In this document: in pieces, positions 6,962 through 56,018 of the stretch
How the letters are laid out: every line of letters starts with the position of its first letter
How positions within the stretch are numbered: the stretch's first letter is position 1
Assembly: GCA_031261605.1 (NCBI GenBank)
Contig: JAISJI010000055.1
Span: forward strand, 12,844-76,843
DNA length: 64,000 bases
Source of the DNA: Ignavibacteria bacterium
GTDB lineage: Bacteria; Bacteroidota; Ignavibacteria; Kapaibacteriales; UBA2268
Direction of reading: 5' to 3'
The notes under the pieces: generated by a model
Told to the model about the DNA's origin: nothing
Database searches by the model: none
Seen by the model: the letters and a program-made list of their open reading frames with translations, nothing else
Position numbers and translations under genes: made by a program

Positions 6962-8611
<1,650 letters not shown>

Positions 8612-10375: not shown

Positions 10376-10461
10376 CTCAATAACCCTAGGAAAAAAGAAA
10401 ACGACAGGATGTCCACAAAATTTTATTCACGTTGCTTAATTTTAGAAACACGGAGGTTACT

Positions 10462-31387: not shown

Positions 31388-31897
31388 ATGAGTGAAACTA
31401 CTACCACCTCGCTCTCTATGCGCAAATTCCAAAAGGTCTGCGACATATTAGAGAACTACGAGTATAACAATTCTAAACTAGTTCCTATTCTACAGGAGAT
31501 ACAAGAAGAATACCGCTACCTACCTGAAGATATTATGACTTTCGTCGCATCTTCATTAGATGTCCCGCCTGCTAAGGTGTTCGGCGTTGCTACATTCTAC
31601 GCACATTTCGCGCTACAACCCAAAGGAAAATATGTCATCAAAGTATGCGATGGCACTGCTTGCCACGTCCGCCATTCTTCTGCTCTACTTGATGCAATTC
31701 AAGAAAAATTGGGACTTTCCGATAGAAAGACAACCACCGATGACCTACTATTCACATTAGAAACCGTGTCATGCCTAGGCGCATGCGGACTTGCGCCTGT
31801 TGTCGTAATCAATGATGATGTGTATGGTGGTCAAACTCCCGACTCTGTTGTCATAGCAATAGAAAATATTCTTACTAAGGAGGCACACAATGAATAA
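31388..31897 (+). CDS. [FeFe]-hydrogenase-associated NADH dehydrogenase subunit, NuoE-like 2Fe-2S (HydC/HndA)
   Basis: NuoE-family pattern VCDGTACHVRHSSALLDAIQEKLG...SCLGACGLAPVVVIND. Confidence 0.85.
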   Translation: MSETTTTSLSMRKFQKVCDILENYEYNNSKLVPILQEIQEEYRYLPEDIMTFVASSLDVPPAKVFGVATFYAHFALQPKGKYVIKVCDGTACHVRHSSALLDAIQEKLGLSDRKTTTDDLLFTLETVSCLGACGLAPVVVINDDVYGGQTPDSVVIAIENILTKEAHNE

Positions 31898-33797: not shown

Positions 33798-33894
33798 ATG
33801 GAAACTCAAAGAATACTCGAAGAAATGAAGGAATAGTAGATACACTTAACAATACACTTTATATTTACAATTTTTGAATAAAACATAAAATAAT

Positions 33895-35904
33895 ATGAAA
33901 TCATTAACCATAGATAATAGAATAGTAAGCTTCGAAAACGAAAGGAATTTGCTCGAAGTTATAAAGAAAACCAATATAGAACTGCTTACCTTCTGCTACC
34001 ACTCAGAACTTAGCATCTACGGTGCGTGTCGTCTCTGTATCGTTGAAATAGATGGCAGAGGTATACAAACCGCCTGCACTACCAAGCCAGAAGAAGGTAT
34101 GGTCGTTCATACTAACACCAAAACATTACGCAATATACGCAGGACAACGGTGGAACTATTGCTTTCCAGCTATAATCACAACTGCACGACTTGCCAAAAG
34201 AATACCAAATGCCGTCTGCAAAGTATTGCAAAAAATCTTGGTATCACTAATGTTCGCTTTAAGAAATCTTCTGCAATTCCTAAGCCAATAGACCTTAGTT
34301 CTTACGCTATTCAGCGTAACCCCAATAAGTGCATTCTATGTGGCGATTGTGTGCGTGCGTGCAATGAAATACAAGGCATTGGCGCTATTGATTTTGCTTA
34401 TAGAGGTGCAAATTCACAAGTAATTCCTGCTTTTGGTAACAACATTGCTTCGGTGGATTGCGTAGATTGCGGACAATGTAGCCGCGTATGTCCTACTGGT
34501 GCTATAATTCCACGCTCCGAAATAGGTGGAGTATGGAAAGAATTGGACAACCCCAATAAAGTAGTGGTAGCACACTTCGCTCCATCCGTTAGAGTAGCCA
34601 TCGGCGAAGAATTTGGTATGCCGTCCGGTTCTATCGTTCCCGGGCAAATAGTAAGTGCTTTGCGTATGCTTGGCTTTGATAAAGTATTTGATACATCATT
34701 TACTGCCGACCTCACTATCGTTGAAGAGGCAAATGAATTCATTAAACGCAAAGAGGAAGGTGGAGTATTCCCAATGTTCACATCCTGCTGTCCAGCGTGG
34801 GTGAAATTTACAGAACAACATTATCCTGAATTGCACCAAAACCTATCTTCGTGCCGTTCTCCACAAGCAATGTTCGGTTCTATATCTAAAAAGTATTTGC
34901 CGGAAATGCTAAAAATTGACCCGAAAAATTTAGTAGTGGTATCCATAATGCCTTGCACAGCAAAGAAGATGGAGGCACGCAGAGAAGAATTCAAAACAGA
35001 TGGAATGCAAGATAATGACTATGTGCTAACTACACAAGAGTTCGCCACAATGATAAAACAATGCGGTATCCAATTCAATACACTTCAACCGGATTCCTTT
35101 GACCCTCCATTTGGACATAAAACAGGTGCTGGCGTAATATTTGGAAACAGTGGTGGTGTGACAGAAGCAGCTCTACGCTATATCGTGGAAAAAGTTGAGA
35201 ACAAGCCATTGGAACGCATAGAATTTGCAGAAGTTCGCGGAGAAGCAGGTATCCGAGCAGCATCTTTAACCATTGCTGGCGAGCCAGTGAAAATCGCTGT
35301 CATCCACGGCTTACGTAATGCACGCCAAGTAATAGAAAGAATTAAATCTGGTGAAATACATTACGACTTCATTGAAGTAATGTCTTGCCCGGGAGGATGT
35401 ATCGGTGGTGCTGGGCAACCAGTTTACTTTAAGCCAGAGACCCGCAAAAATAGAGCAGCCGGTCTATATAATGCTGATAAAATGCTCCAACAGCATAAAT
35501 CACAAGATAACCAATACATCAAAGACCTTTATAAAGACCATATTGGCGAAATCGGCGGCGAAGAAGCGCATAAGGTATTGCATACTCACTTCCATAACCG
35601 CAAACGCATCTTCCACGAAGGCGTTTCCATCATTGATACCAATACAGCAAAGCTCACCGTTAGCATTTGCGTTGGAACTAATTGCTTCGTTAATGGGGCG
35701 CAAGATATTATGAAGCAAATGCTAAATTATGTTACTGAACATAGTTTAGAAAATATTGTTGATGTAAAGGCGAACTTCTGTATGGAGAATTGTGACCACG
35801 GTCCAAGCGTCAGCATCGGAACGGAAGTTATTACAAAAGCAAATGCTAAAAAAGTAATTTCAGAATTAGAAGCCCAATTAGAGCAAATTACTGAAATGGC
35901 ATAA
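33895..35904 (+). CDS. hydA: [FeFe] hydrogenase catalytic subunit HydA
   Basis: All three H-cluster motifs: FTSCCPAWV (L1), MPCTAKKME (L2), EVMSCPGGCIGGAGQP (L3); N-terminal 2Fe-2S and 4Fe-4S ferredoxin domains. Confidence 0.9.
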   Translation: MKSLTIDNRIVSFENERNLLEVIKKTNIELLTFCYHSELSIYGACRLCIVEIDGRGIQTACTTKPEEGMVVHTNTKTLRNIRRTTVELLLSSYNHNCTTCQKNTKCRLQSIAKNLGITNVRFKKSSAIPKPIDLSSYAIQRNPNKCILCGDCVRACNEIQGIGAIDFAYRGANSQVIPAFGNNIASVDCVDCGQCSRVCPTGAIIPRSEIGGVWKELDNPNKVVVAHFAPSVRVAIGEEFGMPSGSIVPGQIVSALRMLGFDKVFDTSFTADLTIVEEANEFIKRKEEGGVFPMFTSCCPAWVKFTEQHYPELHQNLSSCRSPQAMFGSISKKYLPEMLKIDPKNLVVVSIMPCTAKKMEARREEFKTDGMQDNDYVLTTQEFATMIKQCGIQFNTLQPDSFDPPFGHKTGAGVIFGNSGGVTEAALRYIVEKVENKPLERIEFAEVRGEAGIRAASLTIAGEPVKIAVIHGLRNARQVIERIKSGEIHYDFIEVMSCPGGCIGGAGQPVYFKPETRKNRAAGLYNADKMLQQHKSQDNQYIKDLYKDHIGEIGGEEAHKVLHTHFHNRKRIFHEGVSIIDTNTAKLTVSICVGTNCFVNGAQDIMKQMLNYVTEHSLENIVDVKANFCMENCDHGPSVSIGTEVITKANAKKVISELEAQLEQITEMA

Positions 35905-35934
35905 CTTATGCCAATATAATCACATAATACAATT

Positions 35935-37521
35935 ATGCCTAATTACCTAAAACATACCGCAATAAACTTCTTTTGGCTTGCCGTGTGTATTTTGTTGCTA
36001 ATAGGATGCGAAAGCAATTCCACCGCAACGCAAAACCCTATTGGCAAAAAAGTTGCCATTATCCTCCATACTAACGATGTGCATGGAGCATACTCATTTG
36101 TGGATGCAATTAGTGGAGGACCAACTTCTGCCATTGGACACGACTATATTGCAGGCGTTTATGATGCTTTTAAGCAAAAATATAATGTCCCTGTTTTCTT
36201 GCTCGATGCGGGAGACGCAACACAAGGCATATACTTCGTTGCTCAAAGCAAGGGACAATCTGCAATAGAGATAATGAATTCAACAGGTTACGATGCTATG
36301 ACTCTTGGTAATCACGAATTTGATTACGGCTGGCTGCATCTTATAGAAAATTCCAAAAAAGCGAATTTTGCGTGGCTCACTCAAATTGCAGAAGCCAATA
36401 ATACCAATAACTTATATCATTACATTGTCCTACAACGAGATAGCATTCGGCTTGGCGTTTTCGGCATCACAACGCCAGAGACACAATTCACCAGCGAAGG
36501 TGGATTTGATATAACATTCGGTTCGGTTAATGATTTAATCCAATATTCTAAGCAAATGGTTGCATTACTTAGAGATAGTTTTTATGTAGATTATGTTGTG
36601 TGTCTGTCCCACTTGGGCATTAATGACTTCGGATACGGCACAAGTTATAATATACGCGATAACGTGGAAGGCATTGATATTATTATAGATGGACATAGCC
36701 ATACCGAATTGAAAGATATAGTTAATGTGTCGGGAAAAACTCCTATAACATCTACCGGCACAGCAAGTGTTCAACTCGGCGTAGTCAATTTGTTTGACGC
36801 AGGAATTCCGGAAACGCTGAATATGCCGAAAAATGAATGTTTTACATATACCCCACGAGCAAGCGTTACTGATGTAATTGGCAAATGGATTGCCATTGTT
36901 AAAAACGAAGGTAGCGTTATTGTCGCAACCTTACCATTTGATATTACAACACTTAAAGCAAATGAACGCACAAGAGAAACCATAATGGGCAACATCATTA
37001 CCGATGCTATGCGTATAGCATCCGGTGCCGATATTGCAATTCAAAATGGTGGTAGCATCAGAGACCAGCAATTAAAAGCTGGACAAATCACTAAATCTCA
37101 ACTAATTAACATTATGCCTTATGGTAATATTTTGCAAAAAGCAACTATAAGCGGAAAGATATTGCTTGAAGTATTAGAGCAATCTGTTTCGCTCTATCCA
37201 TCGGAAAATGGTGGCTTTATGCAATGTTCCGGTATGACTTATACCTTTAACCCAAATAAACCCGTAGGTAGCAGAATTATAAAAGTAACTATCGCCGGTA
37301 AGCCATTAGATACCAATGCGTTATATACGCTTTGCACTAATGACTACATAGCCAAAGGTGGCGATAACTACAAAATGCTCATTTCCACATTCAAAAATCA
37401 ACAATCGCTTGCAATACCAGAACTTGCATTGATGGAAGAAGCAGTGATTTGGTATCTTAAAGCGAACCAGACCACTATTAGCCCAAATTTAGAAGGCAGA
37501 ATAATAGTAATTAACGAATAA
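35935..37521 (+). CDS. bifunctional metallophosphatase/5'-nucleotidase (UshA-like), probable lipoprotein
   Basis: Signal/lipobox LLIGCES; calcineurin-like region HTNDVHGA...DAGDATQG...GNHEFD; 5'-nucleotidase C-terminal domain. Confidence 0.8.
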   Translation: MPNYLKHTAINFFWLAVCILLLIGCESNSTATQNPIGKKVAIILHTNDVHGAYSFVDAISGGPTSAIGHDYIAGVYDAFKQKYNVPVFLLDAGDATQGIYFVAQSKGQSAIEIMNSTGYDAMTLGNHEFDYGWLHLIENSKKANFAWLTQIAEANNTNNLYHYIVLQRDSIRLGVFGITTPETQFTSEGGFDITFGSVNDLIQYSKQMVALLRDSFYVDYVVCLSHLGINDFGYGTSYNIRDNVEGIDIIIDGHSHTELKDIVNVSGKTPITSTGTASVQLGVVNLFDAGIPETLNMPKNECFTYTPRASVTDVIGKWIAIVKNEGSVIVATLPFDITTLKANERTRETIMGNIITDAMRIASGADIAIQNGGSIRDQQLKAGQITKSQLINIMPYGNILQKATISGKILLEVLEQSVSLYPSENGGFMQCSGMTYTFNPNKPVGSRIIKVTIAGKPLDTNALYTLCTNDYIAKGGDNYKMLISTFKNQQSLAIPELALMEEAVIWYLKANQTTISPNLEGRIIVINE

Positions 37522-42555: not shown

Positions 42556-44238
42556 ATGAGAACAATTTACATTTTTGTTATAATCACATTGTTGTCTGTT
42601 TTGCCGGCGTATTCGTTGGTTGAGTATATGAATGTATGGACAATAGGCGGTGCAAAGCAAAGTATAGATATTAATATAATAGATACTATCATATTCAAAA
42701 ATAAGCAGATGCAGATGTTTTATAAAGATTTATCGAGCGACGCTATTGAAGTAGATAATATTGATAGCATTACATATTCGGTCGATGCAACAACACGCTT
42801 CGAACATATTCAATATCTCTTAAATCAATCTAAGAATAGCAATATAAAGAGTTATTACGTTTCTTTGCAAGGTAATGATTACTCTGGCGATGGCTCACTG
42901 AGCAAGCCGTGGAAGAGCGTTAAGTTTGCTATCAATACCGTTCCGGATGATTCTTGCGTAATTAGAGTGATGCCCGGCGAATATGAATCTGTCGGATATT
43001 TGACACGAAAGTTTAGCAAAAAAATACTAATAATTGCGGAGACAGCATATATTAAGATGAAAGGTGGAACGGATGCTCATAGAATATTCTTTTTTGATAA
43101 AGCAGAGAATTATATAGTTGCGGGCTTTGAGATTACAGGTAATCCGAATGTGAATAATTGGGAGGAGAAATACTCGCATTTAATACAGATTTCGGAATCA
43201 AATCACATTACATTTGAGAATTGTATTATCCACGATTGCTATAACAATGATAATATTAAAATAAATCTATACAGCACCGATATTGTGTTTAGAGGAAATG
43301 CTATATATAATCAATGTCAGAATGAAAATTCTGGCGACCAGCATTACGATGTTGTCGGTGGGAATGATTTGGTAATAGAAGACAATATATTTTTCAATGA
43401 CTTCAAGGCGTCGGGACGTCCGGAGATTAACAATGGCTCGGCATCATTCATAATGATAAAGTGCTTCAATGTTCCTAATCCTCCATCTAAGAATATATAT
43501 ATTGCGCGAAATGTATTTTTGAATTGGTGGGGAAAGGCAGACCAATCAATGCTTCTACTAGGAGAAAACGGCTTTCCACTGCACAATGTAGAGGGAGCAT
43601 TGATAGAGAATAACCTTTTCATCGGTAATACAGAAAATCGTATGTCGGGCGTGATTTCTCTTAAAGGAGCAAAAGATGTCACTATTCGTGCAAATACAAT
43701 TACTGGCTTTGTAAAACACGGCTGGGGCTGGAACCCGGGTGAAGGAAATTTTGGCTATGGCATTAGAGTTCAATGCGAAGGACAAAATCCACCACACGAA
43801 AATATTAACGTATATAACAATATATGGTCAGACCCAACAGGACGTATGCTATTCTTTTCCGCTCACAGCAAAGCGAATATGGCGAGTGGCGAATTAATGA
43901 ATAACTTGTTCTATAACAATGGAAATACGATAGAAGAGAAGCCAAATAATTGCTTTACTCCTGCAATGGATACACAAAAAATAGTAGCCGACCCGTTGCT
44001 TGAAACGGACTATAGCAAGGTTGTCACACCGGTATGGAATGCGACTCTGAAGCAATTTGGCGGAGGTGCAAAGAGTGTAGAGGAAGCGAGAGTGATGCTA
44101 ATAGAGACCTTTGGTAAATTCAAATCCTCATCTTCACCGGCAATAAATGCAGCATCGCCAGAGCAAATGCCAGCCAACGACATATTATTCAGGCATAGAA
44201 CAGATGGCAAGCCAGACATAGGGGCATTCGAGGAATAA
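42556..44238 (+). CDS. secreted right-handed parallel beta-helix (pectate-lyase-fold) repeat protein
   Basis: Signal peptide; recurring NxxIxxN / beta-helix rung patterns (ITFENCIIHDC, VFRGNAIYN, IEDNIFFND, IENNLFIGN, IRANTITG). Confidence 0.6.
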   Translation: MRTIYIFVIITLLSVLPAYSLVEYMNVWTIGGAKQSIDINIIDTIIFKNKQMQMFYKDLSSDAIEVDNIDSITYSVDATTRFEHIQYLLNQSKNSNIKSYYVSLQGNDYSGDGSLSKPWKSVKFAINTVPDDSCVIRVMPGEYESVGYLTRKFSKKILIIAETAYIKMKGGTDAHRIFFFDKAENYIVAGFEITGNPNVNNWEEKYSHLIQISESNHITFENCIIHDCYNNDNIKINLYSTDIVFRGNAIYNQCQNENSGDQHYDVVGGNDLVIEDNIFFNDFKASGRPEINNGSASFIMIKCFNVPNPPSKNIYIARNVFLNWWGKADQSMLLLGENGFPLHNVEGALIENNLFIGNTENRMSGVISLKGAKDVTIRANTITGFVKHGWGWNPGEGNFGYGIRVQCEGQNPPHENINVYNNIWSDPTGRMLFFSAHSKANMASGELMNNLFYNNGNTIEEKPNNCFTPAMDTQKIVADPLLETDYSKVVTPVWNATLKQFGGGAKSVEEARVMLIETFGKFKSSSSPAINAASPEQMPANDILFRHRTDGKPDIGAFEE

Positions 44239-46409: not shown

Positions 46410-46676
46410 ATGGAGAATGATATTATAACAAAGGAATGGCTTAATGCTAATTTTGTTTATGATGAGAATCTTAAAATGTGGAGAGCATCATCAGATGTTG
46501 ATGGGAAATGGTATATTAAGAGATATTCATATGAACCTGACACATTTGCATTATATCTTCGTTTATTTGATGCTCCTCACTTACGTGATTTATATGCCAT
46601 TATTTATAAGGGAACTTCTATACAAGAACTTCTTAAGCACCTATCTGGTTTGGATGATGGTTCAAAATCTTCGTGA
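46410..46676 (+). CDS. small hypothetical protein (AT-rich islet)
   Basis: 88-aa ORF with no recognisable family; first gene of the AT-rich segment upstream of the CRISPR array. Confidence 0.35.
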   Translation: MENDIITKEWLNANFVYDENLKMWRASSDVDGKWYIKRYSYEPDTFALYLRLFDAPHLRDLYAIIYKGTSIQELLKHLSGLDDGSKSS

Positions 46677-46721
46677 ACTATAACTTTTAGAATTTCTTTT
46701 CGTAGTTGCATTTACTTTTAT

Positions 46722-46750
46722 GTTGTAAATTGGTCTCAATTTTGTTATTT
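46722..46750 (+). repeat. solitary partial CRISPR repeat (29-nt 5' half GTTGTAAATTGGTCTCAATTTTGTTATTT, identical to the array repeat)
   Basis: Exact match to positions 1-29 of the 46-nt repeat, about 2.3 kb upstream of the first canonical repeat. Confidence 0.8.
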
Positions 46751-46859
46751 ATACTATTAGTAGTAATGGTATTATCTAGTGCTACACTGCAAGCCACTAT
46801 CACTATTTAACATTTTACATATAATGGTGTTCCTTTAAGAAGATTTGTTTGTTTTGATA

Positions 46860-47084
46860 GATGAATTAGATTTAGATGATTCAACCTCTTATACTGCTAT
46901 TACATCGTGGTCTTCAAAATCAGCAAAAGGCTATATAACACTATATCTGAATGAAAAAATGCAAATTTGTGTCAGCTATACAGATTATAATGGCGATGTT
47001 GTTTATGATAAACAACATCCGGACGAGGATGTATATGAAGACGGAGGAGATTATGATGGATATGGAGAAGATTATGATGAATAA
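46860..47084 (+). CDS. small highly acidic hypothetical protein (C-terminus DEDVYEDGGDYDGYGEDYDE)
   Basis: ORF 46845..47084 with a likelier start at the ATG at 46860; strongly acidic, Tyr/Asp-rich tail. Confidence 0.4.
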   Translation, partial: DELDLDDSTSYTAITSWSSKSAKGYITLYLNEKMQICVSYTDYNGDVVYDKQHPDEDVYEDGGDYDGYGEDYDE

Positions 47085-47092
47085 TGTAAATA

Positions 47093-47800
47093 ATGCTTCA
47101 CAAGACAGAACTAAATATGAAGATAATTGATAAAAACAAAGATTATTATGATTACTTACAAGGCATAAATGGAATAGACCCTCAAGTTACTTTTGATAGG
47201 AGAGGTTCATTTATGCCTTCTATAAACTGGTTAAATAGTTTCATTATACCTTATCAAGAACCTGATAAATATCTTTTTCCTAACATAAACAAAAGCAAAA
47301 TAGTATTAGAAGTAGGGTTTCAACACTACATATTAGAGATAGAAAGAATGAAAGATGAAACTTGCAAATATAAATTGCATTCTCAGAGTAGAGATGAACA
47401 TTGTGGAGCATCTGTTATAGGAATATATCGCTTATCTTATTATTCAAGAGATGATAGGTGGAAAGTAACTAAAGAAACTCATATTCCGACTATTTTAGTA
47501 TCTGATAGTGAAACTAAAAGTAATATAGAATATGATGTTGTTATGACCCCTTGTTTCAAATGTTTATCTTCTGATACAGAAAATGTTAGACAATCTCCAT
47601 ATCTAAACCCAATATTAAAAGATACATTCATTCCTTCTATTATAGATGCACAAACTATCTGGAACAACATATATGAATATATTAGTTTTACTAATGAACC
47701 TTTAATAACAGATAGTATGACAGATAAAGAAAAATTAGAATCGAAAGGGTTTGATAACAAAAGTTCATTTAGACATCCGGTAAAATACGTTATGATTTGA
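47093..47800 (+). CDS. hypothetical protein; 3' end overlaps a degenerate CRISPR repeat
   Basis: 235-aa ORF; the last codons (..YVMI*) are encoded by repeat variant GTTATGATTTGA... Confidence 0.4.
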   Translation: MLHKTELNMKIIDKNKDYYDYLQGINGIDPQVTFDRRGSFMPSINWLNSFIIPYQEPDKYLFPNINKSKIVLEVGFQHYILEIERMKDETCKYKLHSQSRDEHCGASVIGIYRLSYYSRDDRWKVTKETHIPTILVSDSETKSNIEYDVVMTPCFKCLSSDTENVRQSPYLNPILKDTFIPSIIDAQTIWNNIYEYISFTNEPLITDSMTDKEKLESKGFDNKSSFRHPVKYVMI

Positions 47801-47833
47801 TTACATTTTAGTATATTTGTGGTGATACACAAC
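47789..47833 (+). repeat. degenerate CRISPR repeat (GTTATGATTTGATTACATTTTAGTATATTTGTGGTGATACACAAC)
   Basis: Shares termini GTT.TG...ACAAC and the central TTTGT.GTGGAT/A.ACAAC block with the canonical repeat; nearly identical to the variant at 48783. Confidence 0.75.
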
Positions 47834-47919
47834 CAAACTATTGCTTGATATTTCTACGAGATACAAGGAATTACAGAGTTGAACAAGGCGAAGGCATATT
47901 ATAATTTTATATAACAATT

Positions 47920-48477
47920 ATGAAAACTTACAATGATTATAAAGATTTGTTATTACAAATCAATTCATATCTAAATGAATCAGTTGATTTTAGTTTAAAT
48001 TTTAAGAGAAAATTAACTGATGATTTGTTAAAATTAAGCTATGTATTAGATGAATTTTATAATAATATTTTAACAGATAAAAATGGAAATATACATAATA
48101 GAAATACTGAAAGTTTTTATGTACATATTCATAAACCTGGAAAACATTTAGCAAAAATAAGAATCAGTGAATATGCACCTTTGTCATTCAATAAAATTGT
48201 AAATGATATTGTAAAAAATAAATATCAATATTATTATATCATAAATTTAACAGGGACAGAATGGAATAGTGTATTTAGTAAATTTTTTTTAAGACAATGT
48301 GTACTTCAAGCTGATGTATCAAATTTAACCCAAGTTGATTATGTATCCAAATCTATCATAAGTAATGATGTAAACAAACTGGTTATTAATATTATGGATA
48401 CTATATTGACATATTTACAAACCAACAACATAATTATATCAGGTTTAGAAATAGATTGGAACATATCAAAAATATAA
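47920..48477 (+). CDS. hypothetical protein (AT-rich, Asn/Tyr/Lys-rich)
   Basis: 185-aa ORF between two degenerate repeats; no family recognised. Confidence 0.4.
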   Translation: MKTYNDYKDLLLQINSYLNESVDFSLNFKRKLTDDLLKLSYVLDEFYNNILTDKNGNIHNRNTESFYVHIHKPGKHLAKIRISEYAPLSFNKIVNDIVKNKYQYYYIINLTGTEWNSVFSKFFLRQCVLQADVSNLTQVDYVSKSIISNDVNKLVINIMDTILTYLQTNNIIISGLEIDWNISKI

Positions 48478-48482
48478 ATATT

Positions 48483-48794
48483 ATGAAAAATTATCAAACA
48501 TACAAAATACTATCACTTATGGACAAAGTGCCTGTAGTAGATATGGCTACCTATATAGGTAAAATTTCACCATCTCTGTATGGTGAAGGTAAGGTTAAAC
48601 TCAAACAGAGAGATTGGTTCTACAATTTATCTACTGATGGAGGTGGTTATGTATATTACCATCATAAACAAGCATTATATGAGATAGTGGATAGAGACCT
48701 AATACTTTGTAAGAATATTGATTATAATTTGATACATCTGGTGATTGACAACTTCAGCAACTCAGTTCCCAATATATGGCACGTTATGATTTGA
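48483..48794 (+). CDS. hypothetical protein; 3' end overlaps a degenerate CRISPR repeat
   Basis: ORF 48456..48794, probable start at the ATG at 48483; ends ..HVMI* inside repeat variant GTTATGATTTGA, mirroring the gene at 47093. Confidence 0.35.
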   Translation: MKNYQTYKILSLMDKVPVVDMATYIGKISPSLYGEGKVKLKQRDWFYNLSTDGGGYVYYHHKQALYEIVDRDLILCKNIDYNLIHLVIDNFSNSVPNIWHVMI

Positions 48795-50042
48795 TTACAT
48801 TTTCGTTATATTTGTGGTGATACACAACAACTACTACTGCATTAACTACTGCTAATACGTTGTGATTTGCGTTCTTTTTCGTTATATTTGTGGTGATACA
48901 CAACACACGAAAAAAGCACGTCATTTGTCTTGAAGTTGTGATTTGCGTTCTTTTTCGTTATATTTGTAGTGGATTACAACTCCAAGCAGCGTTAGTATTG
49001 AATCTCTTCAGTTGTAAATTGGTCTCAATTTTGTTATTTTTGTAGTGGATTACAACTCTGTTGCCTCTCTGGGTCTTAATGCACGGTTGTAAATTGGTCT
49101 CAATTTTGTTATTTTTGTAGTGGATTACAACCTTGTTCTTTCCATACTTTATTTCAATGAAGTTGTAAATTGGTCTCAATTTTGTTATTTTTGTAGTGGA
49201 TTACAACTAATTATTATCTAACGCGTCGCACGGAATGGTTGTAAATTGGTCTCAATTTTGTTATTTTTGTAGTGGATTACAACATACCGATCAAATGAAT
49301 CGTTCGGAACGATGTTGTAAATTGGTCTCAATTTTGTTATTTTTGTAGTGGATTACAACTTCATTAACAATAAATTTACCACTATTTTGTTGTAAATTGG
49401 TCTCAATTTTGTTATTTTTGTAGTGGATTACAACAGTTGGTGGCTTTGTATCAGTGCCTGCTGTGTTGTAAATTGGTCTCAATTTTGTTATTTTTGTAGT
49501 GGATTACAACTTTTTAATATAATTTTCAATATATTCACCTGTTGTAAATTGGTCTCAATTTTGTTATTTTTGTAGTGGATTACAACCGTCTAAATTTGGG
49601 ATACCAACAAACGATTGTTGTAAATTGGTCTCAATTTTGTTATTTTTGTAGTGGATTACAACTATTGATGGCAACACAACGAGCAAAGAGTTGTTGTAAA
49701 TTGGTCTCAATTTTGTTATTTTTGTAGTGGATTACAACAATATGTTCGCTCATATCGTATTCTATATAGTTGTAAATTGGTCTCAATTTTGTTATTTTTG
49801 TAGTGGATTACAACTATAAGTATAGCGTATGTCTTGGCTCTGCCGTTGTAAATTGGTCTCAATTTTGTTATTTTTGTAGTGGATTACAACTTTCCTGGAT
49901 TGACTAATATTTATTATTTAGTTGTAAATTGGTCTCAATTTTGTTATTTTTGTAGTGGATTACAACGATTCTGAAGTGGATATTTATAGCAGCGGCGTTG
50001 TAAATTGGTCTCAATTTTGTTATTTTTGTAGTGGATTACAAC
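48783..50042 (+). CRISPR. CRISPR array: 17 repeats of 46 nt (14 canonical GTTGTAAATTGGTCTCAATTTTGTTATTTTTGTAGTGGATTACAAC from 49011, plus 3 progressively degenerate repeats at 48783, 48859, 48935), 16 spacers of 29-30 nt
   Basis: Repeat starts read directly: 48783, 48859, 48935, 49011, 49086, 49162, 49238, 49314, 49389, 49465, 49541, 49617, 49693, 49769, 49845, 49921, 49997. The repeat has the 7-bp terminal inverted repeat GTTGTAA / TTACAAC. Confidence 0.95.
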
Positions 50043-50094
50043 ATTCCCACTGCAACACTCGCAATAACAGTAACTTATACTAAACACTACGAAT

Positions 50095-50145
50095 GAAAAA
50101 AGAGCGAGCTTTTGAAATAGAAAGCCCGCTCTTTTGTTTTTTTGC
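50095..50145. terminator. bidirectional terminator-like hairpin (AAAAAA AGAGCGAGC...GCCCGCTCT TTTGTTTTTTT) between array and tracrRNA
   Basis: Stem flanked by an A-tract and a T-tract, so it can act on either strand. Confidence 0.55.
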
Positions 50146-50248
50146 AATCTTGCAGATAAAAAAATATCTGATAACAATATATTCAAATTATTTTTGTATA
50201 TTGCGTTCTCTTGTATTGCGATTTAAGTAATCTAAGTATAATCCGTTT

Positions 50249-50345
50249 AAAAAACAGAAACCCAACATAAATGCTGGGCTGCCGTGATGTTTTCACAACG
50301 GAATAATCCTTATTGTAAATTGTTCTCAATTTTGAATTACAAATA
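50249..50345 (-). ncRNA. predicted tracrRNA (anti-repeat + hairpins + intrinsic terminator), transcribed on the minus strand toward the array
   Basis: Plus-strand 50312-50342 ATTGTAAATTGTTCTCAATTTTGAATTACAA is a diverged repeat copy. Its minus-strand transcript UUGUAAUUCAAAAUUGAGAACAAUUUACAAU pairs with repeat positions 1-23 (about 22 bp, one mismatch). It is followed by stem-loops (CCGUUGUGAAAACAUCACGG; CAGCCCAGCAUUUAUGUUGGGUUUCUG) and UUUUUU. Confidence 0.6.
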
Positions 50346-50366
50346 TAACTATATTTTTGTTAACTA
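50331..50366 (+). promoter_or_regulatory. putative Bacteroidetes-type promoter for cas9 (-33 TTTG at 50331, -7 TATTTTTG at 50352-50359)
   Basis: TAnnTTTG-type -7 element 28 nt upstream of the cas9 ATG; -33/-7 spacing of 17 nt is slightly shorter than the 19-21 consensus. Confidence 0.35.
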
Positions 50367-50387
50367 CCAAATATTATCAAAATTATT

Positions 50388-53300
50388 ATGAAAAAAGTTT
50401 TAGGTTTAGATTTAGGAACGACTTCTATTGGCTGGGCATTGGTAAATAGAGCCGAAACAAAAGAAGAACGCTCAAATATTATTAAATTAGGTGTTAGAGT
50501 TGTGCCATTGTCTGTTGATGAAAATCTGAACTATGGCAAAGGGAAACCTATAACTACCAATGCTGGCAGACGGTTAAAGCGTGGAATGCGCCGAAATCTC
50601 CAGAGGTATAAGTTGCGTAGAGAAAATCTAATAGAAATTCTTAAAGACAATAAGTTCATTACAGATGATACTTTTCTCTCGGAAGAAGGTAAAGACACTA
50701 CATTTGAGACATATACACTGCGGGCAAAGGCAGTAACCGATGAGATTGCACTAGACGAATTGGCAAGAGTATTGCTGATGATTAATAAGAAACGTGGCTA
50801 TCGGAGTGGTAGAAAGGTAACAAACGATGAAGATGGCCAATCTGTTGATAGTATGGAGGTCGCTAAGAATTTATATCAAGATAATCTAACCCCAGGTGAA
50901 TTCAGTTTAAATCTGCTAAAGCAAGGTAAAAAAGAACTACCGGATTATTATCGCACTGATTTAAAAGCTGAAATAGATAAAATATGGGAATACCAACGAG
51001 AATATCACTCAGAAATACTTACAGACGAACTTAAAATACAACTTGAAGGAAAAGGACAAAAGGCAGCTGCACAACTATTCTTTGCTAAGTATGGATTTAA
51101 TACCGCAGATGTGAAAGGCAGTAAAGAAGCACAAAAACTGAAAAAATATGAATTGCGAGTGGATGCCTTGACAAAGGAGTTGGATAAAGAGGAACTTGCA
51201 CTTGTAATTTCAAATATTTGTGGTGAAATTAATAGTTCGAGTGGATACTTGGCAGCGATAAGCGATAGAAGTAAGGAACTGGAATTTAATAACCAAACTG
51301 TTGGTCAGTATTTTATGGAGCAATTAGCAAAAAATTCACATTTCAGTGTCAAAAATAAGATCTTCTACAGACAAGATTATATTGACGAATTTGAAAAGAT
51401 ATGGTCGACGCAAAGTAAATTCCATACAGAACTAACTAACGAATTGAAATCAAAAATTAGAGATGTGATTATTTTTTATCAACGAAGATTGAAGAGTCAA
51501 AAAGGGCTGATTAGTTTCTGCGAGTTCGAAAGAAGAGAAGTTGAAATAGAGATTGACGGCAAAATAAAGGAGAAGGTAGTTGGCTCAAGAGTCGTGCCTA
51601 AATCTTCTCCTTTATTTCAAGAATTTAAAATATGGCAAATCCTTAATAATATTCAGGTTACAACACATAAGCAGACGGGCGAATATTTTGAATTAGAGCA
51701 AGACCAAAAGGAATACTTAGCACAGGAATTGAGTATTAGAACAAAATTATCTGCCACAGAAGCATTAAAGCTACTATACCCCAAAGAAGACAAAGATTAT
51801 GATTTGAATTACAATATATTGGAAGGAAATAAGACGCAAGCAGAGTTATTTGATGTATACAAAAAAATTATAGTGGAAAGTAATAGATTAAGCGACCACG
51901 ATTTTTCAAAAATGAATGCAAAGCAAACAATAGAGGCGGTAGCAGAAATATTTGACGACTTGGGATACAGCACGGATATTTTGGAATTTGATTCTTCTTA
52001 TGAAGGAGATATTCGCCAGCAGCCGATGTATAAATTGTGGCATATATTATATTCGTATGAGGGTGATAGTGGAAATGAAAAATTAGAAAAGAAATTAACC
52101 GACTTATATGGATTTGCGCAAGAAACTGCTAAACGTATTGCAAATATTTCTTTTTCGTTGGATTACGGAAACTTAAGCGCGAAAGCAATTAAAAAGATAC
52201 TGCCATTTCTAAAAAGTGGCTCACGCTATGATGAATCTGTAGAAAAAGGAGGATATGATAGACATTCTAAGAGTTCGCTGACAAAAGAAGAAATTGATAA
52301 TAAGATATTGAAAGATAAATTAAAAAACCTTCCTAAAAATTATTTACGTAATCCAGTTGTAGAGAAGATTTTAAATCAAATGGTAAATGTAGTAAATGCT
52401 ATTATTGATACTTACGGCAAACCAGATGAAATAAGCGTTGAACTTGCGCGAGAATTGAAAATGAATGCAAAAGAGAGAGAAAATAAAACGAAAGCAATAT
52501 CCAAATCTAACAAAAACAACGAAGCAATAAAAAAACGTTTGAAGGATGAATTTAGTATCAGTAATGTAAGTCATAATGATATATTGCGTTATAAGTTATA
52601 TCAGGAACTGAAAGATAATGCCTATAAGACACTTTATTCAAATCAATATATCCCGCAGGAAAAATTATTTAGCAAAGAAATTGACAGAGACCATATTATT
52701 CCGCAATCCCGTTTATTTGATGATTCATTCTCCAATAAAATATTGGAATATAAAAGCGTTAATATTGAAAAAGGAAATGAAACCGCTTATGATTATGTTC
52801 TAAATAAATATGGAAAAGAGAAAATTGATGATTATTTATCAAAAATAAATAAATTGTATGCCAACAAATCCATATCCAAGACGAAATACAATAAATTGAA
52901 AATGAAAGGCATAGACATCCCAGATGATTTTATTGAAAGGGACATAAAAGATACTCAATATATTGCAAAAACAGCCAAAAATATGTTAGAGGAAATTGTA
53001 AATGTTGTCATTTCCACTTCAGGGGAAATAACAAGCAAACTACGTGAGGATTGGGGATTAGTAGATATAATGAAGGAATTGAATTGGGATAAATACAGCA
53101 AACTTGGATTAACAGAAGTGATAGAAAATGAAGAAGGACATAAAATAAGCAAAATTAAAGATTGGAATAAGCGTAACGACCATCGCCATCACGCAATGGA
53201 TGCTCTAACCGTTGCATTTACTACGCGTAGCCATATCCAGCACCTCAATACATTGAAATCTAATTCTGAATCTGACTTAATTTATAAGGACAAGAGAAAT

Positions 53301-54494
53301 AAAAAGAAGTTCTCGCCACCTATCCCGGAAAAAGATTTTAGAGCCGAAGCAAAAGAGCATTTAGAAAACACCTTAATTTCAATTAAAGCAAAAAATAAAG
53401 TAGCAACCATAAATACTAATAAAACTAAAACAAATACAAAAAATAATTTCAAAGAAACTAAACAACTCACCCCACGCGGACAACTGCATAACGAGACAAT
53501 ATATGGAAGTATTCAACAAAATATTGTGGTTTTCGAAAAAATTGGTAGTTCATTTGATGCAGATAAAATAAATAAAGTAACAAAACCTGCATATAAAGAG
53601 GCGTTATTAGAACGTCTACATAAGTTTAATGATGACCCAAAACTTGCTTTTACTGTGAAAAATAGTTTATCAAAAAATCCGATATACTTAAATGATTTGC
53701 AAACTAATAAGGTACCAGAAAAAGTAAAAATAGAAAAAATAGAAACAATTTATACTATTCGTAAAGATATTAAGCCAGATTTAAACGTAGAAAAAGTAGT
53801 CGATTCTAAAATCCGTAAGTTATTGGAAAAGCGTATCAAAGAATATAATAACGACCCTAAAAAAGCATTCGAAAATTTAGATGAAAATCCTATTTGGCTT
53901 AATGAGAAAAAATGCATATCTATCAAGCGTGTTACCATACGTGGCGTTAGTAATACTGAGCCACTGCATAGCAAAAAAGATAAAGATGGCAAATTATTAT
54001 TAGATGGAAGCGGACAAAATATACCTATTGATTTTGTTCAAACCGGTAACAATCATCACGTGGCTATGTACAAGGATCAAGATGGAGATCTGCAAGAAAA
54101 TGTGGTCTCTTTTTACGAGGCAGTTTTGCGTAAAAATGATAAATTGCCAATAATGGATAAGAATTTTAATAGCGAACTTGGTTGGCAGTTTATGTTTTCT
54201 ATGGAGCAGAACGAATATTTTATTTTTCCAAATGAACAAACAAGATTCAATCCCAATGAAATTGATTTATTAGAACCAAATAATTATCATCTAATTAGCC
54301 CAAATTTATATAGAGTGCAAAAACTTGCTACAAAAAATTATATGTTTAGACATCATTTAGAAACAGATGTTCAGGAAAGAAAAGAACTTAAAGGTATTTC
54401 ATATAAATTGATACAAAGTACAAAATACTTAGAAGACATTGTAAAGGTTCGTACGAATCACCTTGGACAAATTATATCTGTTGGAGAATACTAA
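50388..54494 (+). CDS. cas9: type II CRISPR-associated endonuclease Cas9 (1368 aa)
   Basis: RuvC-I MKKVLGLDLGTTSIGWAL; RuvC-II ISVELARELKMNAKER; HNH DRDHIIPQS...NKILEYKSVNIEKGN; RuvC-III HHAMDALTVAF; Arg-rich bridge helix GRRLKRGMRRNLQRYKLRR. Confidence 0.95.
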   Translation: MKKVLGLDLGTTSIGWALVNRAETKEERSNIIKLGVRVVPLSVDENLNYGKGKPITTNAGRRLKRGMRRNLQRYKLRRENLIEILKDNKFITDDTFLSEEGKDTTFETYTLRAKAVTDEIALDELARVLLMINKKRGYRSGRKVTNDEDGQSVDSMEVAKNLYQDNLTPGEFSLNLLKQGKKELPDYYRTDLKAEIDKIWEYQREYHSEILTDELKIQLEGKGQKAAAQLFFAKYGFNTADVKGSKEAQKLKKYELRVDALTKELDKEELALVISNICGEINSSSGYLAAISDRSKELEFNNQTVGQYFMEQLAKNSHFSVKNKIFYRQDYIDEFEKIWSTQSKFHTELTNELKSKIRDVIIFYQRRLKSQKGLISFCEFERREVEIEIDGKIKEKVVGSRVVPKSSPLFQEFKIWQILNNIQVTTHKQTGEYFELEQDQKEYLAQELSIRTKLSATEALKLLYPKEDKDYDLNYNILEGNKTQAELFDVYKKIIVESNRLSDHDFSKMNAKQTIEAVAEIFDDLGYSTDILEFDSSYEGDIRQQPMYKLWHILYSYEGDSGNEKLEKKLTDLYGFAQETAKRIANISFSLDYGNLSAKAIKKILPFLKSGSRYDESVEKGGYDRHSKSSLTKEEIDNKILKDKLKNLPKNYLRNPVVEKILNQMVNVVNAIIDTYGKPDEISVELARELKMNAKERENKTKAISKSNKNNEAIKKRLKDEFSISNVSHNDILRYKLYQELKDNAYKTLYSNQYIPQEKLFSKEIDRDHIIPQSRLFDDSFSNKILEYKSVNIEKGNETAYDYVLNKYGKEKIDDYLSKINKLYANKSISKTKYNKLKMKGIDIPDDFIERDIKDTQYIAKTAKNMLEEIVNVVISTSGEITSKLREDWGLVDIMKELNWDKYSKLGLTEVIENEEGHKISKIKDWNKRNDHRHHAMDALTVAFTTRSHIQHLNTLKSNSESDLIYKDKRNKKKFSPPIPEKDFRAEAKEHLENTLISIKAKNKVATINTNKTKTNTKNNFKETKQLTPRGQLHNETIYGSIQQNIVVFEKIGSSFDADKINKVTKPAYKEALLERLHKFNDDPKLAFTVKNSLSKNPIYLNDLQTNKVPEKVKIEKIETIYTIRKDIKPDLNVEKVVDSKIRKLLEKRIKEYNNDPKKAFENLDENPIWLNEKKCISIKRVTIRGVSNTEPLHSKKDKDGKLLLDGSGQNIPIDFVQTGNNHHVAMYKDQDGDLQENVVSFYEAVLRKNDKLPIMDKNFNSELGWQFMFSMEQNEYFIFPNEQTRFNPNEIDLLEPNNYHLISPNLYRVQKLATKNYMFRHHLETDVQERKELKGISYKLIQSTKYLEDIVKVRTNHLGQIISVGEY

Positions 54495-55394
54495 ATGCTC
54501 AAACAAACCCTCTACTTCGGCAACCCCGCTTATTTATCTGTGAAAAATAAACAACTCGTTGTTAAATTGATAGATAGCGATGAGATAATCACTCGCCCAA
54601 TCGAAGACATCGGTATCGTTATTTTAGATAATTGGCAAATCACTATAACCCAAAACGTTATCGCATCTCTCCTCGAAAATAACGCCGCTATTATACATTG
54701 CAATAATGCACATCTCCCTGTCGGTCTTGTCCTTAATTTAGATGGTAATACCTTGCAATCCCAACGCTTTAAGACACAAATAAATGCTTCCGAACCACTA
54801 AAAAAACAACTCTGGCAACAAATAATTAAAGCAAAAATAGAAAATCAATCGCTGCTCCTAAAAAGCCAAAATAAAGATATTAAACGACTCCAAGTTATGC
54901 TCCGCAATCTTAAAACAGGCGATACAGATAATTATGAAGCACAAGCGGCAGCGTATTATTGGAAAAATATTTTTAGCAACTATCTCCCTAATTTTAAGCG
55001 AGATAGAGAAGGTGACCAGCCGAATAATTTGCTAAATTATGGTTATGCAATTTTGCGTGCAGCAGTTGCACGAGCACTTGTTGGCTCTGGTTTATTGCCA
55101 ACTCTGGGCATTTTTCACCGCAACCAATATAACGCATATTGTTTAGCAGATGATATTATGGAACCATATCGTCCATTTGTGGATAGAGCCGTTTTTAATT
55201 ACTTAAAAGAAAATAAATATTGCGATTTCTTGGATACAGAAGCGAAAAAATATTTATTCCAAGTAATGCAAGACGATGTGATGTTTGGAAAAGAGCGAAG
55301 CCCTTTATTTGTTGGACTTACAACGACAACTGCTTCACTTGTAGCGTGCTTTGAAGGCAAAAAGCGAAAAATAAAATATCCAACAATCTGCTAA
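54495..55394 (+). CDS. cas1: CRISPR-associated endonuclease Cas1 (type II)
   Basis: 299 aa; NLLNYGYAILRAAVARALVGSGLLPTLGIFHRNQYNAYCLADDIMEPYRPFVD; start overlaps the cas9 stop (TAAATG). Confidence 0.95.
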   Translation: MLKQTLYFGNPAYLSVKNKQLVVKLIDSDEIITRPIEDIGIVILDNWQITITQNVIASLLENNAAIIHCNNAHLPVGLVLNLDGNTLQSQRFKTQINASEPLKKQLWQQIIKAKIENQSLLLKSQNKDIKRLQVMLRNLKTGDTDNYEAQAAAYYWKNIFSNYLPNFKRDREGDQPNNLLNYGYAILRAAVARALVGSGLLPTLGIFHRNQYNAYCLADDIMEPYRPFVDRAVFNYLKENKYCDFLDTEAKKYLFQVMQDDVMFGKERSPLFVGLTTTTASLVACFEGKKRKIKYPTIC

Positions 55395-55443
55395 ACTAAT
55401 TCATTAATTATAGTATATATCCGATAATTTTAGAATATTATCT

Positions 55444-55785
55444 ATGTATATTATGCAACGACTTAGTGAGTATAGAATTATGTGGGTTATGGTTTTATTT
55501 GACTTGCCGACAGAAACCAAAGTTGACCGCAAGCGATACACACAATTCCGCAAAGAATTACTGAAAGATGGATTTGATATGTTTCAGTTTTCTATTTATG
55601 TCCGACATTGTGCCAGCAGAGAAAATGCACAAGTCCATATAAAACGTGTCAAAGATAAAATGCCACAATTCGGACAAATCGGACTAATGACTATTACCGA
55701 CAAGCAATTCGGGCAGATAGAAATTTTCTGTAATCGCAAAGTTGTCGAACCATCTCACGTTCAGATGCAATTAGATATGTTTTGA
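55444..55785 (+). CDS. cas2: CRISPR-associated endoribonuclease Cas2
   Basis: About 100-113 aa; VLFDLPTETKVDRKRYTQFRKELLKDGFDMFQFSIYVRHC is a typical Cas2 core; exact start uncertain (several in-frame ATGs). Confidence 0.9.
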   Translation: MYIMQRLSEYRIMWVMVLFDLPTETKVDRKRYTQFRKELLKDGFDMFQFSIYVRHCASRENAQVHIKRVKDKMPQFGQIGLMTITDKQFGQIEIFCNRKVVEPSHVQMQLDMF

Positions 55786-55805
55786 GTGAATTGGAAAACT
55801 ATCCT

Positions 55806-55995
55806 TATTTCTTAATAAATTTCTCTACTTCATTACTCTTGCCATTTTTCAAACGAACAAAATACGTTCCAACAGTGAAATTGCTCATATCTATTGCGGT
55901 CTCAAGCATTCCATCTGTTGTTTGTTTAACTTCTGGAGACAATGAACCATACTCTCCTTGTTTAGACAACTTTGTAGATGTTTCCAGCGGTAAGC
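55806..55995 (-). pseudogene. orphan fragment encoding a T9SS-type C-terminal domain remnant (...GTYFVRLKNGKSNEVEKFIKK*)
   Basis: Minus-strand reading frame immediately downstream of cas2 preserves the GTYFVRL motif also seen in the T9SS CTD of the protein at 42021-42548; only about 38-62 codons with no upstream domain. Confidence 0.3.
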
Positions 55996-56018
55996 CATAA
56001 TTTTAAGTAAAAAATCAC

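Follow-up and report, generated by a model that had tools for sequence, protein, structure and literature searches.

The window analysed here is a stretch of 64,000 nucleotides (nt) from contig JAISJI010000055.1 (positions 12,844 to 76,843 of the forward strand; assembly GCA_031261605.1, labelled as an Ignavibacteria bacterium), to which all coordinates below refer. By its gene content it holds a complete type II-C CRISPR system with its associated (cas) genes: a repeat-spacer array is followed by a gene for the trans-activating CRISPR RNA (tracrRNA) and by cas9, cas1 and cas2 (Table 1). A preliminary description of this DNA had placed the array and the three cas genes at 48783-55785, and these coordinates proved exact. 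It had also put a tracrRNA between the array and cas9, where we find one, lying on the minus strand.

The cas genes and the array

The translation of cas9 contains the motifs GLDLGTTSIGWA (RuvC-I, including GLDLGT), ISVELAREL (RuvC-II), DRDHIIPQS...N (HNH) and HHAMDAL (RuvC-III), which together with the profile matches bear out the earlier account of a full-length enzyme with all of its RuvC and HNH motifs. Neither csn2 nor cas4 was found, the six open reading frames (ORFs) flanking the system (46410-48794 and 55782-56000) being without matches in Pfam, NCBIfam and PADLOC. The next recognisable genes encode an SPFH/Band-7 protein on the left and, on the right, a BNR protein sorted by the type IX secretion system (T9SS). 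Because the gene content is cas9, cas1 and cas2 without csn2 or cas4, the locus is assigned to type II-C, as had been proposed.

For comparison, a scan of one genome per GTDB species yielded 80 related loci (L001-L080), whose Cas9 proteins are 54-62% identical to that of the window over the full length. In the window, the array spans 48783-50042 with a tandem period of 75-76 nt and comprises 17 repeats of 46 nt and 16 spacers, 14 of them 30 nt and two 29 nt long. Fourteen of the repeats, at 49011-50042, are identical copies of the canonical sequence GTTGTAAATTGGTCTCAATTTTGTTATTTTTGTAGTGGATTACAAC (14 matches in a search, with none expected in shuffled sequences). The 13 spacers between them match the number given in the preliminary description, although 11 of the 13, rather than all, have a length of 30 nt. 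To the left of the canonical set lie three divergent repeats: R1 (GTTATGATTTGATTACATTTTCGTTATATTTGTGGTGATACACAAC) and R2 (GTTGTGATTTGCGTTCTTTTTCGTTATATTTGTGGTGATACACAAC), which represent an old type, and the hybrid R3. Fourteen spacers (S3-S16) each precede a canonical repeat handle. The interval previously reported captured the array exactly; two more repeat copies lie outside of it to the left, one a partial canonical repeat and the other an orphan repeat of the old type.

At the cas-proximal end, the leader-like stretch leads into a terminator at about 50097-50140, formed by the hairpin GAGCGAGC...GCCCGCTC and a T run. The relatives are arranged alike, with about 55-80 nt and a hairpin terminator following the last repeat, and in both the relatives and the window it is the cas-distal end of the array that holds degenerate repeats. 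In those relatives that were checked for it (L001, L002, L027 and L048), the 60-80-nt stretch from the last repeat to the terminator holds an inverted copy of the last 10-12 nt or so of the respective repeat. This inverted copy may serve as an element by which the leader is recognised; in the leader-like stretch of the window (50043-50097), nothing clearly corresponding to it was seen.

Table 1. Features of the CRISPR-Cas locus in order of their position in the window
Feature	Coordinates	Strand	Evidence and remarks
Partial canonical repeat, exactly nt 1-29, then unrelated sequence	46722-46750	+	Putative left half of a split terminal repeat
AT-rich block, ~2.2 kb (2213 bp), 23-31% GC	46751-48963		Between the split canonical halves
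o235, 235 aa, phage-like origin; stop codon inside the orphan repeat	47093-47800	+	phrog_4243, E 3e-13
Orphan old-type repeat, 45 nt, near-duplicate of R1, 949 nt upstream of R1	47789-47833	+	Keeps TATATTTG facing o185
o185, 185 aa, rare family	47920-48477	+	Four weak relatives among 1.84 billion representatives
o103, 103-aa orphan ORF; stop codon inside R1	48483-48794	+	Sole database match is itself; no family match
R1, R2 and hybrid R3 with spacers S1 and S2	48783-48980	+	R1 48783-48828, R2 48859-48904, R3 48935-48980
Active-looking array: S3, then 14 identical 46-nt repeats with 13 spacers, S4-S16	48981-50042	+	Sense of the CRISPR RNA (crRNA) is plus
Leader-like 55-nt stretch at the cas-proximal, presumed acquisition end, then hairpin terminator	50043-50140	+	Sequence; arrangement in relatives
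tracrRNA gene, ~87 nt, ends predicted	50249-50335	-	Anti-repeat CAAAAUUGAGAACAAUUUACAAU, core AAGGAUUAUUCCGUUGUGAAAACAU, terminator hairpin, U run
Back-to-back promoter-like elements	50340-50372	both	TTTG/TAnnTTTG motifs for tracrRNA (-) and cas9 (+)
cas9, 1368 aa, RuvC-I, -II and -III and HNH motifs intact	50388-54494	+	TIGR01865, 522 bits; PF13395 HNH_4, PF18541 RuvC_III
cas1, 299 aa, type II subtype	54495-55394	+	TIGR03639 cas1_NMENI, 309 bits
cas2, 113 aa	55444-55785	+	PF09827, TIGR01573

The tracrRNA and its pairing with the repeat

On the plus strand, the sequence ATTGTAAATTGTTCTCAATTTTG at 50310-50334 nearly duplicates the initial 23 nt of the repeat, and its complement on the minus strand (50334-50310) constitutes the anti-repeat. 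Downstream of the anti-repeat and the core come a GC-rich hairpin, CCCAGCAUUUAUGUUGGG, and a U run that ends at 50249; a predicted terminator falls at 50280-50259. The canonical repeat and the anti-repeat form a duplex of 22 bp with one internal mismatch (-24.5 kcal/mol), and the 106-nt region 50240-50345 folds better than all of 200 shuffled versions (z = -4.0). Searches of the locus against Rfam returned no tracrRNA or other family at the gathering score. Because the anti-repeat lies on a minus-strand transcript, with the tracrRNA divergent from cas9, the crRNAs have the polarity of the plus strand, as does cas9.

We located the tracrRNA in 43 of the relatives. It is encoded there on the strand opposite to cas9, 46-261 nt upstream of that gene, and in those displayed a TAnnTTTG box precedes the anti-repeat. 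Its core ACAATAAGGATTATTCCGTTGTGAAAACAT is essentially invariant across these 43 and identical in the window. In each relative it is followed by a hairpin of its own and a T run, the sequence of the hairpin being variable and its pairing maintained by compensatory changes. The 5' handle of the window repeat (GUUGUAAAUUGGUCUCAAUUUUG) and its anti-repeat, however, depart from the usual GUUGUGAUUUGCUUUC at several positions that have co-varied. On this comparison, the repeat/anti-repeat pair of the window is a private, co-varied variant.

A further pairing was noticed in all 23 of the tracrRNAs that were aligned: the 3' end of the anti-repeat (UCACAAU, or UUACAAU in the window) can pair with GUUGUGA in the downstream core (50312-50287 of the window, minus strand). 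It is possible that this forms an alternative hairpin in the free tracrRNA, mimicking the start of the crRNA repeat.

Affinity to characterised type II-C systems

In their supplementary file 4, Gasiunas et al. (2020; PMC7606464) describe a group of orthologues, 'clade X', with experimentally determined protospacer-adjacent motifs (PAMs) and working single-guide RNAs (sgRNAs). Those listed include Cme1 from a compost metagenome (1399 aa; PAM NARNCCN), Ffr from Flavobacterium frigidarium (1345 aa; NAR(A>G)TC), Phi from Prevotella histicola (1380 aa; a PAM beginning with NAR), Psp from Parabacteroides sp. (1424 aa; NR(A>G)TTTT), Orh from Ornithobacterium rhinotracheale (1535 aa; NNAAAR(G>A)) and Wvi from Weeksella virosa (1440 aa; HHAAATD). 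As printed there, the 30-nt tracrRNA core ACAAUAAGGAUUAUUCCGUUGUGAAAACAU of the window recurs identically in Cme1, Ffr, Psp, Orh and Wvi and is one base off in Phi, and the scaffold that follows the anti-repeat, AAGGAUUAUUCCGUUGUGAAAACAU, is identical in the window and in the same five orthologues. A literal search for the core in the main texts of papers gave no match, its presence being confined to the supplementary table.

The window Cas9 shares 60% of the approximately 400 N-terminal residues that the file prints with Cme1, 59% with Phi, 58% with Psp and 50% with Ffr, and the values for the first three equal its distance to its nearest neighbours in the databases. Its length falls within the range spanned by these four orthologues (1345-1424 aa), and the clade repeats, like those of the window, measure 46-47 nt and start with GUUGU. 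The window departs from the clade in the variant 5' handle and anti-repeat of its repeat and in its host, which belongs neither to Bacteroidia nor to Flavobacteriia. Judging by the tracrRNA scaffold and the N-terminal identity, we consider it quite probable, as part of the overall interpretation given below, that the locus belongs to this common Bacteroidota II-C kind.

The suggestion in the preliminary description that the Cas9, tracrRNA and PAM are probably uncharacterised is therefore not supported, insofar as identical tracrRNA cores and 58-60% N-terminal identity are found for orthologues with determined sgRNAs and PAMs, and the protein itself is annotated in NCBI. That description had also envisaged a characterised clade with identical repeat and tracrRNA; what we find is a characterised clade with an identical scaffold but a non-identical repeat. 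The clade and the guide scaffold are thus already known, while the PAM of this particular orthologue and its apparently private repeat/anti-repeat variant are its own. None of the clade X PAMs can be transferred to the window Cas9, because they vary among the orthologues (NARNCCN, NARTC, NRTTTT).

In broader searches, the identical protein was found in NCBI as 'type II CRISPR RNA-guided endonuclease Cas9 [Ignavibacteria bacterium]', all other matches being at most 63% identical and the nearest relatives lying at 60-63%. More than 6000 proteins match at E<=1e-20, and the named ones among them come from Bacteroidia, e.g. Prolixibacteraceae, Paludibacter, Dysgonomonas and Mediterranea. Likewise, wherever the 80 related loci have informative titles these are of Bacteroidia, several bearing phylum-level labels only, with the single exception of L013. 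The latter (CAYVPJ010000098.1), labelled as Oscillospiraceae (Firmicutes), is a 6-kb contig whose label is probably due to mis-binning. These Bacteroidia loci (from Paludibacter, Tannerella, Prevotella and Bacteroides heparinolyticus, among others) have the same cas9-cas1-cas2 content as the window and a divergent tracrRNA behind a TAnnTTTG box.

Other type II-C systems are more distant. The large Bacteroidota II-C enzyme CbCas9 from Chryseobacterium works with an accessory protein, PcrIIC1; no accessory gene was recognised in the window. CbCas9 provides the closest solved structure (PDB 8iyq) and the best sequence match in the PDB (E 5e-64), but it is only distantly related to the window Cas9, with the alignable stretches falling mainly in the HNH and RuvC-III regions. 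Nme1Cas9 of Neisseria meningitidis (PDB 6jdq, E 1e-42) represents the same subtype but is distant and much smaller (~1080 aa). The tracrRNA scaffold and the promoter type of its system also differ from those of the window.

Promoter-like motifs within the repeats and upstream of cas9

The consensus of the Bacteroidota -33/-7 promoter is TTTG-N19-21-TAnnTTTG. The minus-strand element upstream of the tracrRNA fits this consensus: it consists of TTTG (50371-50368), a gap of 20 nt and TATATTTG (50347-50340). Facing the other way, TATTTTTG (50352-50359, plus strand) lies 36 nt before the ATG of cas9. The same box recurs within the repeats. The canonical repeat carries TATTTTTG at nt 25-32, and every repeat variant of the window keeps a TAnnTTTG motif, TATTTTTG or TATATTTG, at nt 24-32, facing the downstream spacer. 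Among the relatives, 34 of 39 repeats have an exact TAnnTTTG, located at nt 23-27, and the remaining five are one mismatch off. The motif is thus conserved despite its position outside the tracrRNA-pairing part of the repeat.

These findings parallel what has been proposed for Flavobacterium columnare and F. psychrophilum (Fp2Cas9), where TAnnTTTG is cited as a Bacteroidetes promoter motif and serves as the proposed cas9 promoter (PMC10309648). The arrays of these II-C loci are probably transcribed from within, towards their variable end, from promoters encoded in the repeats (PMC10309648, citing Hoikkala et al. 2021 and Zhang et al. 2013), and the principle of a promoter in each repeat is cited in the same work for the II-C system of Neisseria meningitidis. 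The window array fits this picture of repeat-embedded promoters, with presumptive plus-strand transcription, the variable end at the leader-like stretch beginning at 50043 and the old end on the left.

An additional TATTTTTG box was observed on the plus strand at 50189-50196, in the gap that separates the array terminator from the tracrRNA 3' end, and faces cas9. A transcript starting from it would run antisense through the tracrRNA gene.

Proposed mode of action and search for targets

Taken together, these elements suggest a conventional Cas9 pathway. The crRNAs would be transcribed from the plus strand, probably initiated by the Bacteroidota-type -7 box (TAnnTTTG) in every repeat and proceeding to the variable end that lies next to the cas genes. 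About 23 nt at the start of the canonical repeat would then pair with the anti-repeat of the ~87-nt tracrRNA, which would itself be transcribed divergently from cas9 from its own predicted TTTG-N20-TATATTTG promoter. The crRNA:tracrRNA duplex would load Cas9, whose RuvC and HNH nucleases would cut PAM-flanked targets, and Cas1 and Cas2 would add new spacers at the array end beside the 55-nt leader-like stretch.

The spacers had been put forward as material for protospacer and PAM discovery, and searches with them returned no targets. The whole array had no match at E<=1 among the INPHARED phages and only spurious ones (E 0.1) among the PLSDB plasmids, the 3' 22-24 nt of S16, S14, S12, S9 and S7 each had none in IMG/VR, and no spacer matched the rest of the window at up to seven mismatches. 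Because no protospacers were found, a PAM cannot be inferred from the array.

Gene order and host genome

The order of the elements sets the window apart from its relatives. An array was detected in 48 of the 80 related loci; in 47 of these it lies downstream of cas2 and antisense to cas9, and in the remaining one (L029) it lies upstream of cas9 but is still antisense. None of the 48 has the layout of the window, with the array upstream of cas9 and in the same sense, which upholds the earlier remark that the order is unusual. Beyond this the relatives resemble the window in having repeats with the TAnnTTTG box. One inversion would yield the window layout, and we infer that the tracrRNA-cas9-cas1-cas2 block has been inverted relative to the array-leader-terminator unit. 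Recombination between the anti-repeat and an array repeat was considered as the route of the inversion and rejected, since the tracrRNA keeps its normal divergent place beside cas9. The Flavobacterium II-C loci have also been remodelled, in their case by insertions of the insertion sequences IS982 and IS256 and by recombination, including the replacement of cas9 (PMC10309648), whereas the window shows the proposed cas-block inversion and a block unrelated to insertion sequences inside a repeat. In a subset of the relatives (L001, L005, L028, L056 and others) the array begins 1-3.6 kb past the expected end of cas2, leaving room for extra genes.

The surrounding genome points to a host outside Bacteroidia. 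Three flagellin genes lie in tandem on the same strand (10432-11616, 12048-13085 and 13167-14174, encoding 394, 345 and 335 aa), each with the Flagellin_N and Flagellin_C domains. For the conserved C-terminal 593 residues of translation initiation factor IF-2 (gene at 25983-29561), the best named relatives are metagenome-assembled genomes (MAGs) of Ignavibacteria and Candidatus Kapabacteria, at 67-79% identity. The three flagellins are consistent with a motile host of the Ignavibacteria/Kapabacteria kind, and these two markers sustain the prior suggestion of a flagellated host of the Fibrobacteres-Chlorobi-Bacteroidetes group, and one outside Bacteroidia. The CRISPR island, at about 46.4-55.9 kb, has a GC content of 23-37%, as against 38-40% in its flanks. 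The lineage indicated by the host markers is thus not the one indicated by the Cas9, and the locus was most likely acquired horizontally from Bacteroidia, which is also the simplest way to read this discrepancy. T9SS-sorted proteins are encoded on the same contig (56019-58658).

The composite old end of the array

The cas-distal end of the array is a composite of two repeat types. R3 is a hybrid in which nt 1-29 are of the old type, identical to R2, and nt 30-46 are canonical (TTGTAGTGGATTACAAC). The partial canonical repeat further upstream supplies 29 nt and R3 supplies 17 nt, together making up one 46-nt repeat. The simplest description of these sequences is that the cas-distal terminal canonical repeat has been split at nt 29/30 by the 2213-bp block. 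In addition to o235, o185, o103 and the orphan repeat, this block carries the ORF o79, two old-type repeats, the two spacers S1 and S2, and nt 1-29 of an old-type repeat. Its left junction has no homology. Its right junction is in register inside the old-type repeat, with the crossover within TTTGT, which is common to both repeat types; this is what recombination between repeats would produce, and the block probably entered the array in that manner. Integration by Cas1-Cas2 was rejected as the origin of the split, since the break lies at nt 29/30 and not at a repeat border. No integrase, tRNA gene or terminal repeats were found for the block, and no convincing inverted repeats flank it.

The independently assembled Logan contig L086 (SRR14710919) corresponds to 46721-48888 of the window at 100% identity, and both of its ends lie in sequence common to other repeat copies. 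It supports the junction of the partial repeat with the block and is consistent with R2 and R3 both being present in the reads. In searches of larger collections, a 21-mer of the old-type repeat was absent from IMG/VR and the JGI metagenome contigs, and a 23-mer of the canonical repeat was absent from the JGI metagenome contigs.

The ORFs of the block are absent from all 80 related loci and have no Pfam, NCBIfam or PADLOC match. The only detected relatives of o235, at 28-34% identity, are on IMG/VR contigs of 120-295 kb; these phage contigs show no synteny with the block and no repeats. The AlphaFold (AF2) model of o185, with a predicted local distance difference test (pLDDT) score of 73 and a predicted template modelling (pTM) score of 0.74, had no significant fold match. 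The orphan repeat gave the sole Rfam match, a sub-threshold one to CRISPR-DR49 (28.5 bits). The only TAnnTTTG motif upstream of the o185-o103 pair is the TATATTTG box in this repeat (47812-47819), and on the strength of this position the orphan CRISPR repeat may act as the promoter of o185 and o103.

The old-type repeats form duplexes of only -6.7 to -10.5 kcal/mol with the resident tracrRNA, against -24.5 kcal/mol for the canonical repeat, and the window holds no second tracrRNA or anti-repeat for them. Because of this poor pairing and the lack of a second anti-repeat in the window, S1 and S2 are probably non-functional with this Cas9. The poor pairing equally speaks against the old-type repeats being mimics of the host repeat close enough to recruit its machinery, in the manner of an RNA anti-CRISPR.

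A more elaborate history may be sketched for the block, though we regard it as rather doubtful. It would be a piece of a phage or some other mobile element that brought along a II-C-like mini-array of its own, or solitary repeats, and small anti-defence genes (o185 and o103). It would have entered by repeat-repeat recombination, and the promoter of the orphan repeat would now drive o185 and o103. If true, this would represent the co-option of a CRISPR repeat as a gene promoter, and the locus would preserve the natural trace of a mobile element having recombined with a type II-C array.

Weighing of the alternatives

We are reasonably confident of the following explanation as a whole: the locus is a clade X-type II-C immunity locus in a low-GC island of an Ignavibacteria/Kapabacteria-like genome, most likely acquired horizontally from Bacteroidia, in which the cas block has been inverted and the terminal repeat split. 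Several observations weigh against it. The TAnnTTTG box of the repeat ends 14 nt before the spacer, and therefore the primary crRNAs would carry a repeat-derived 5' tag in need of trimming. The use of such promoters by the host RNA polymerase is at most suggested, by the presence of TAnnTTTG 35-56 nt before the start codons of several host genes among 28 upstream regions. The inversion is inferred rather than observed, because no inverted repeats or scars mark its presumed breakpoints. No protospacer that might document the PAM or recent activity was found for any tested spacer. Finally, it is a single MAG assembly that connects the left flank (up to 46720) with the partial repeat, as L086 starts at that point.

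This last point touches on whether the layout, the split repeat or both arose in assembly, with contigs misjoined through CRISPR repeats and the true order being cas9-cas1-cas2-array. CRISPR arrays commonly break or scramble short-read assemblies, and the partial repeat, at 29 nt, has the size of a small k-mer. L086 starts and ends exactly in sequence common to other repeat copies, and neither repeat type was found in other public contigs that might confirm the junctions. We nevertheless consider such an artefact very unlikely. Unique sequence flanks the array on both sides in the same 64-kb window. The last repeat, the leader-like stretch and the terminator form an unbroken module that borders on the tracrRNA, and nothing repeat-like lies downstream of cas2. 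Moreover, the junction of the partial repeat with the block is reproduced in L086, and at the switch point in R3 only about 5 nt are common to both repeat types, too short for a k-mer misjoin. The old end could also be explained without any inserted block, the divergent repeats and upstream copies being decayed repeats of one old array and the ORFs between them spurious. Degenerate cas-distal repeats are indeed normal and present in the relatives, o103 and o185 are almost without relatives, and AT-rich DNA yields chance ORFs. Yet decay would not produce an exact canonical 5' half of 29 nt at a distance of 2.2 kb from a hybrid bearing the exactly complementary canonical 3' 17 nt, and the intervals between the old-end repeats are 1038 and 949 nt rather than about 30 nt. 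In addition, real homologues of o235 are found on large viral contigs and it also has a PHROG match, and o185 has four relatives of similar length and a confident-enough predicted fold; the account by decay is thus improbable, and a block lodged in the terminal repeat is the better description.

A different question is whether the system still works. It might be an inactive relic of horizontal transfer, with intact genes but Bacteroidia-type promoters that go unused in this host, or it might be silenced or inhibited, e.g. by products of the block. The foreign composition of the island, the small ORFs sitting in the array beside a phage-like ORF and the want of a protospacer match for the tested spacers would all be in keeping with this. 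Against it, the three cas ORFs are of full length with their catalytic motifs present, and the 14 canonical repeats are perfectly identical with unique spacers between them, suggesting recent turnover. The anti-repeat has co-varied with the private repeat variant, implying selection for pairing in this lineage, and TAnnTTTG boxes are present upstream of several host genes, too. Hence, we hold an inactive relic to be unlikely, and the locus is apparently an intact Cas9 adaptive immune system of a common, already studied Bacteroidota type.

Significance of the locus

In practical terms the locus adds one more Cas9 orthologue to a characterised clade, for which an sgRNA can be designed from the published scaffolds (GUUGUAAAUUGGUCUCAAUUUUG-GAAA-CAAAAUUGAGAACAAUUUACAAUAAGGAUUAUUCCGUUGUGAAAACAUCACGGCAGCCCAGCAUUUAUGUUGGGUUUCUGUUUUUU), and there may be orthogonality between its private repeat/anti-repeat pair and the other guides of clade X. 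In evolutionary terms its real peculiarities are the inverted cas module, the co-varied private repeat and the terminal repeat split by a foreign block with a second repeat type; these are of local evolutionary interest and do not constitute a new kind of system, and the current understanding of type II systems is unchanged. If the proposed transfer is correct, the locus documents the passage of a Bacteroidia-type II-C system, promoters included, across classes into an Ignavibacteria-like host. Similarly, the proposed inversion would mean that a cas module can invert relative to the array while the array-leader-terminator unit stays intact. The composite end suggests that foreign DNA, together with a second repeat type, can become lodged in the old part of an array.

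Other features of the window

Just upstream of the SPFH gene and the CRISPR island lies a 560-aa ORF (42556-44238) without a Pfam match, which has a weak match to a PHROG tail protein (phrog_4577, E 3e-6). A second defence gene appears to be present at 6992-8611: it encodes a 539-aa fusion of an N6/N4 DNA methylase domain with an Mrr-type restriction endonuclease domain, which looks like a Type IIG-like restriction-modification enzyme. The cluster at 31388-37521 combines a NuoF-like subunit (31890-33797) and the large subunit of an Fe-only hydrogenase (33895-35904) with neighbouring ORFs at 31388-31897 and 35935-37521. It resembles an electron-bifurcating [FeFe] hydrogenase and points to a fermentative or anaerobic lifestyle.

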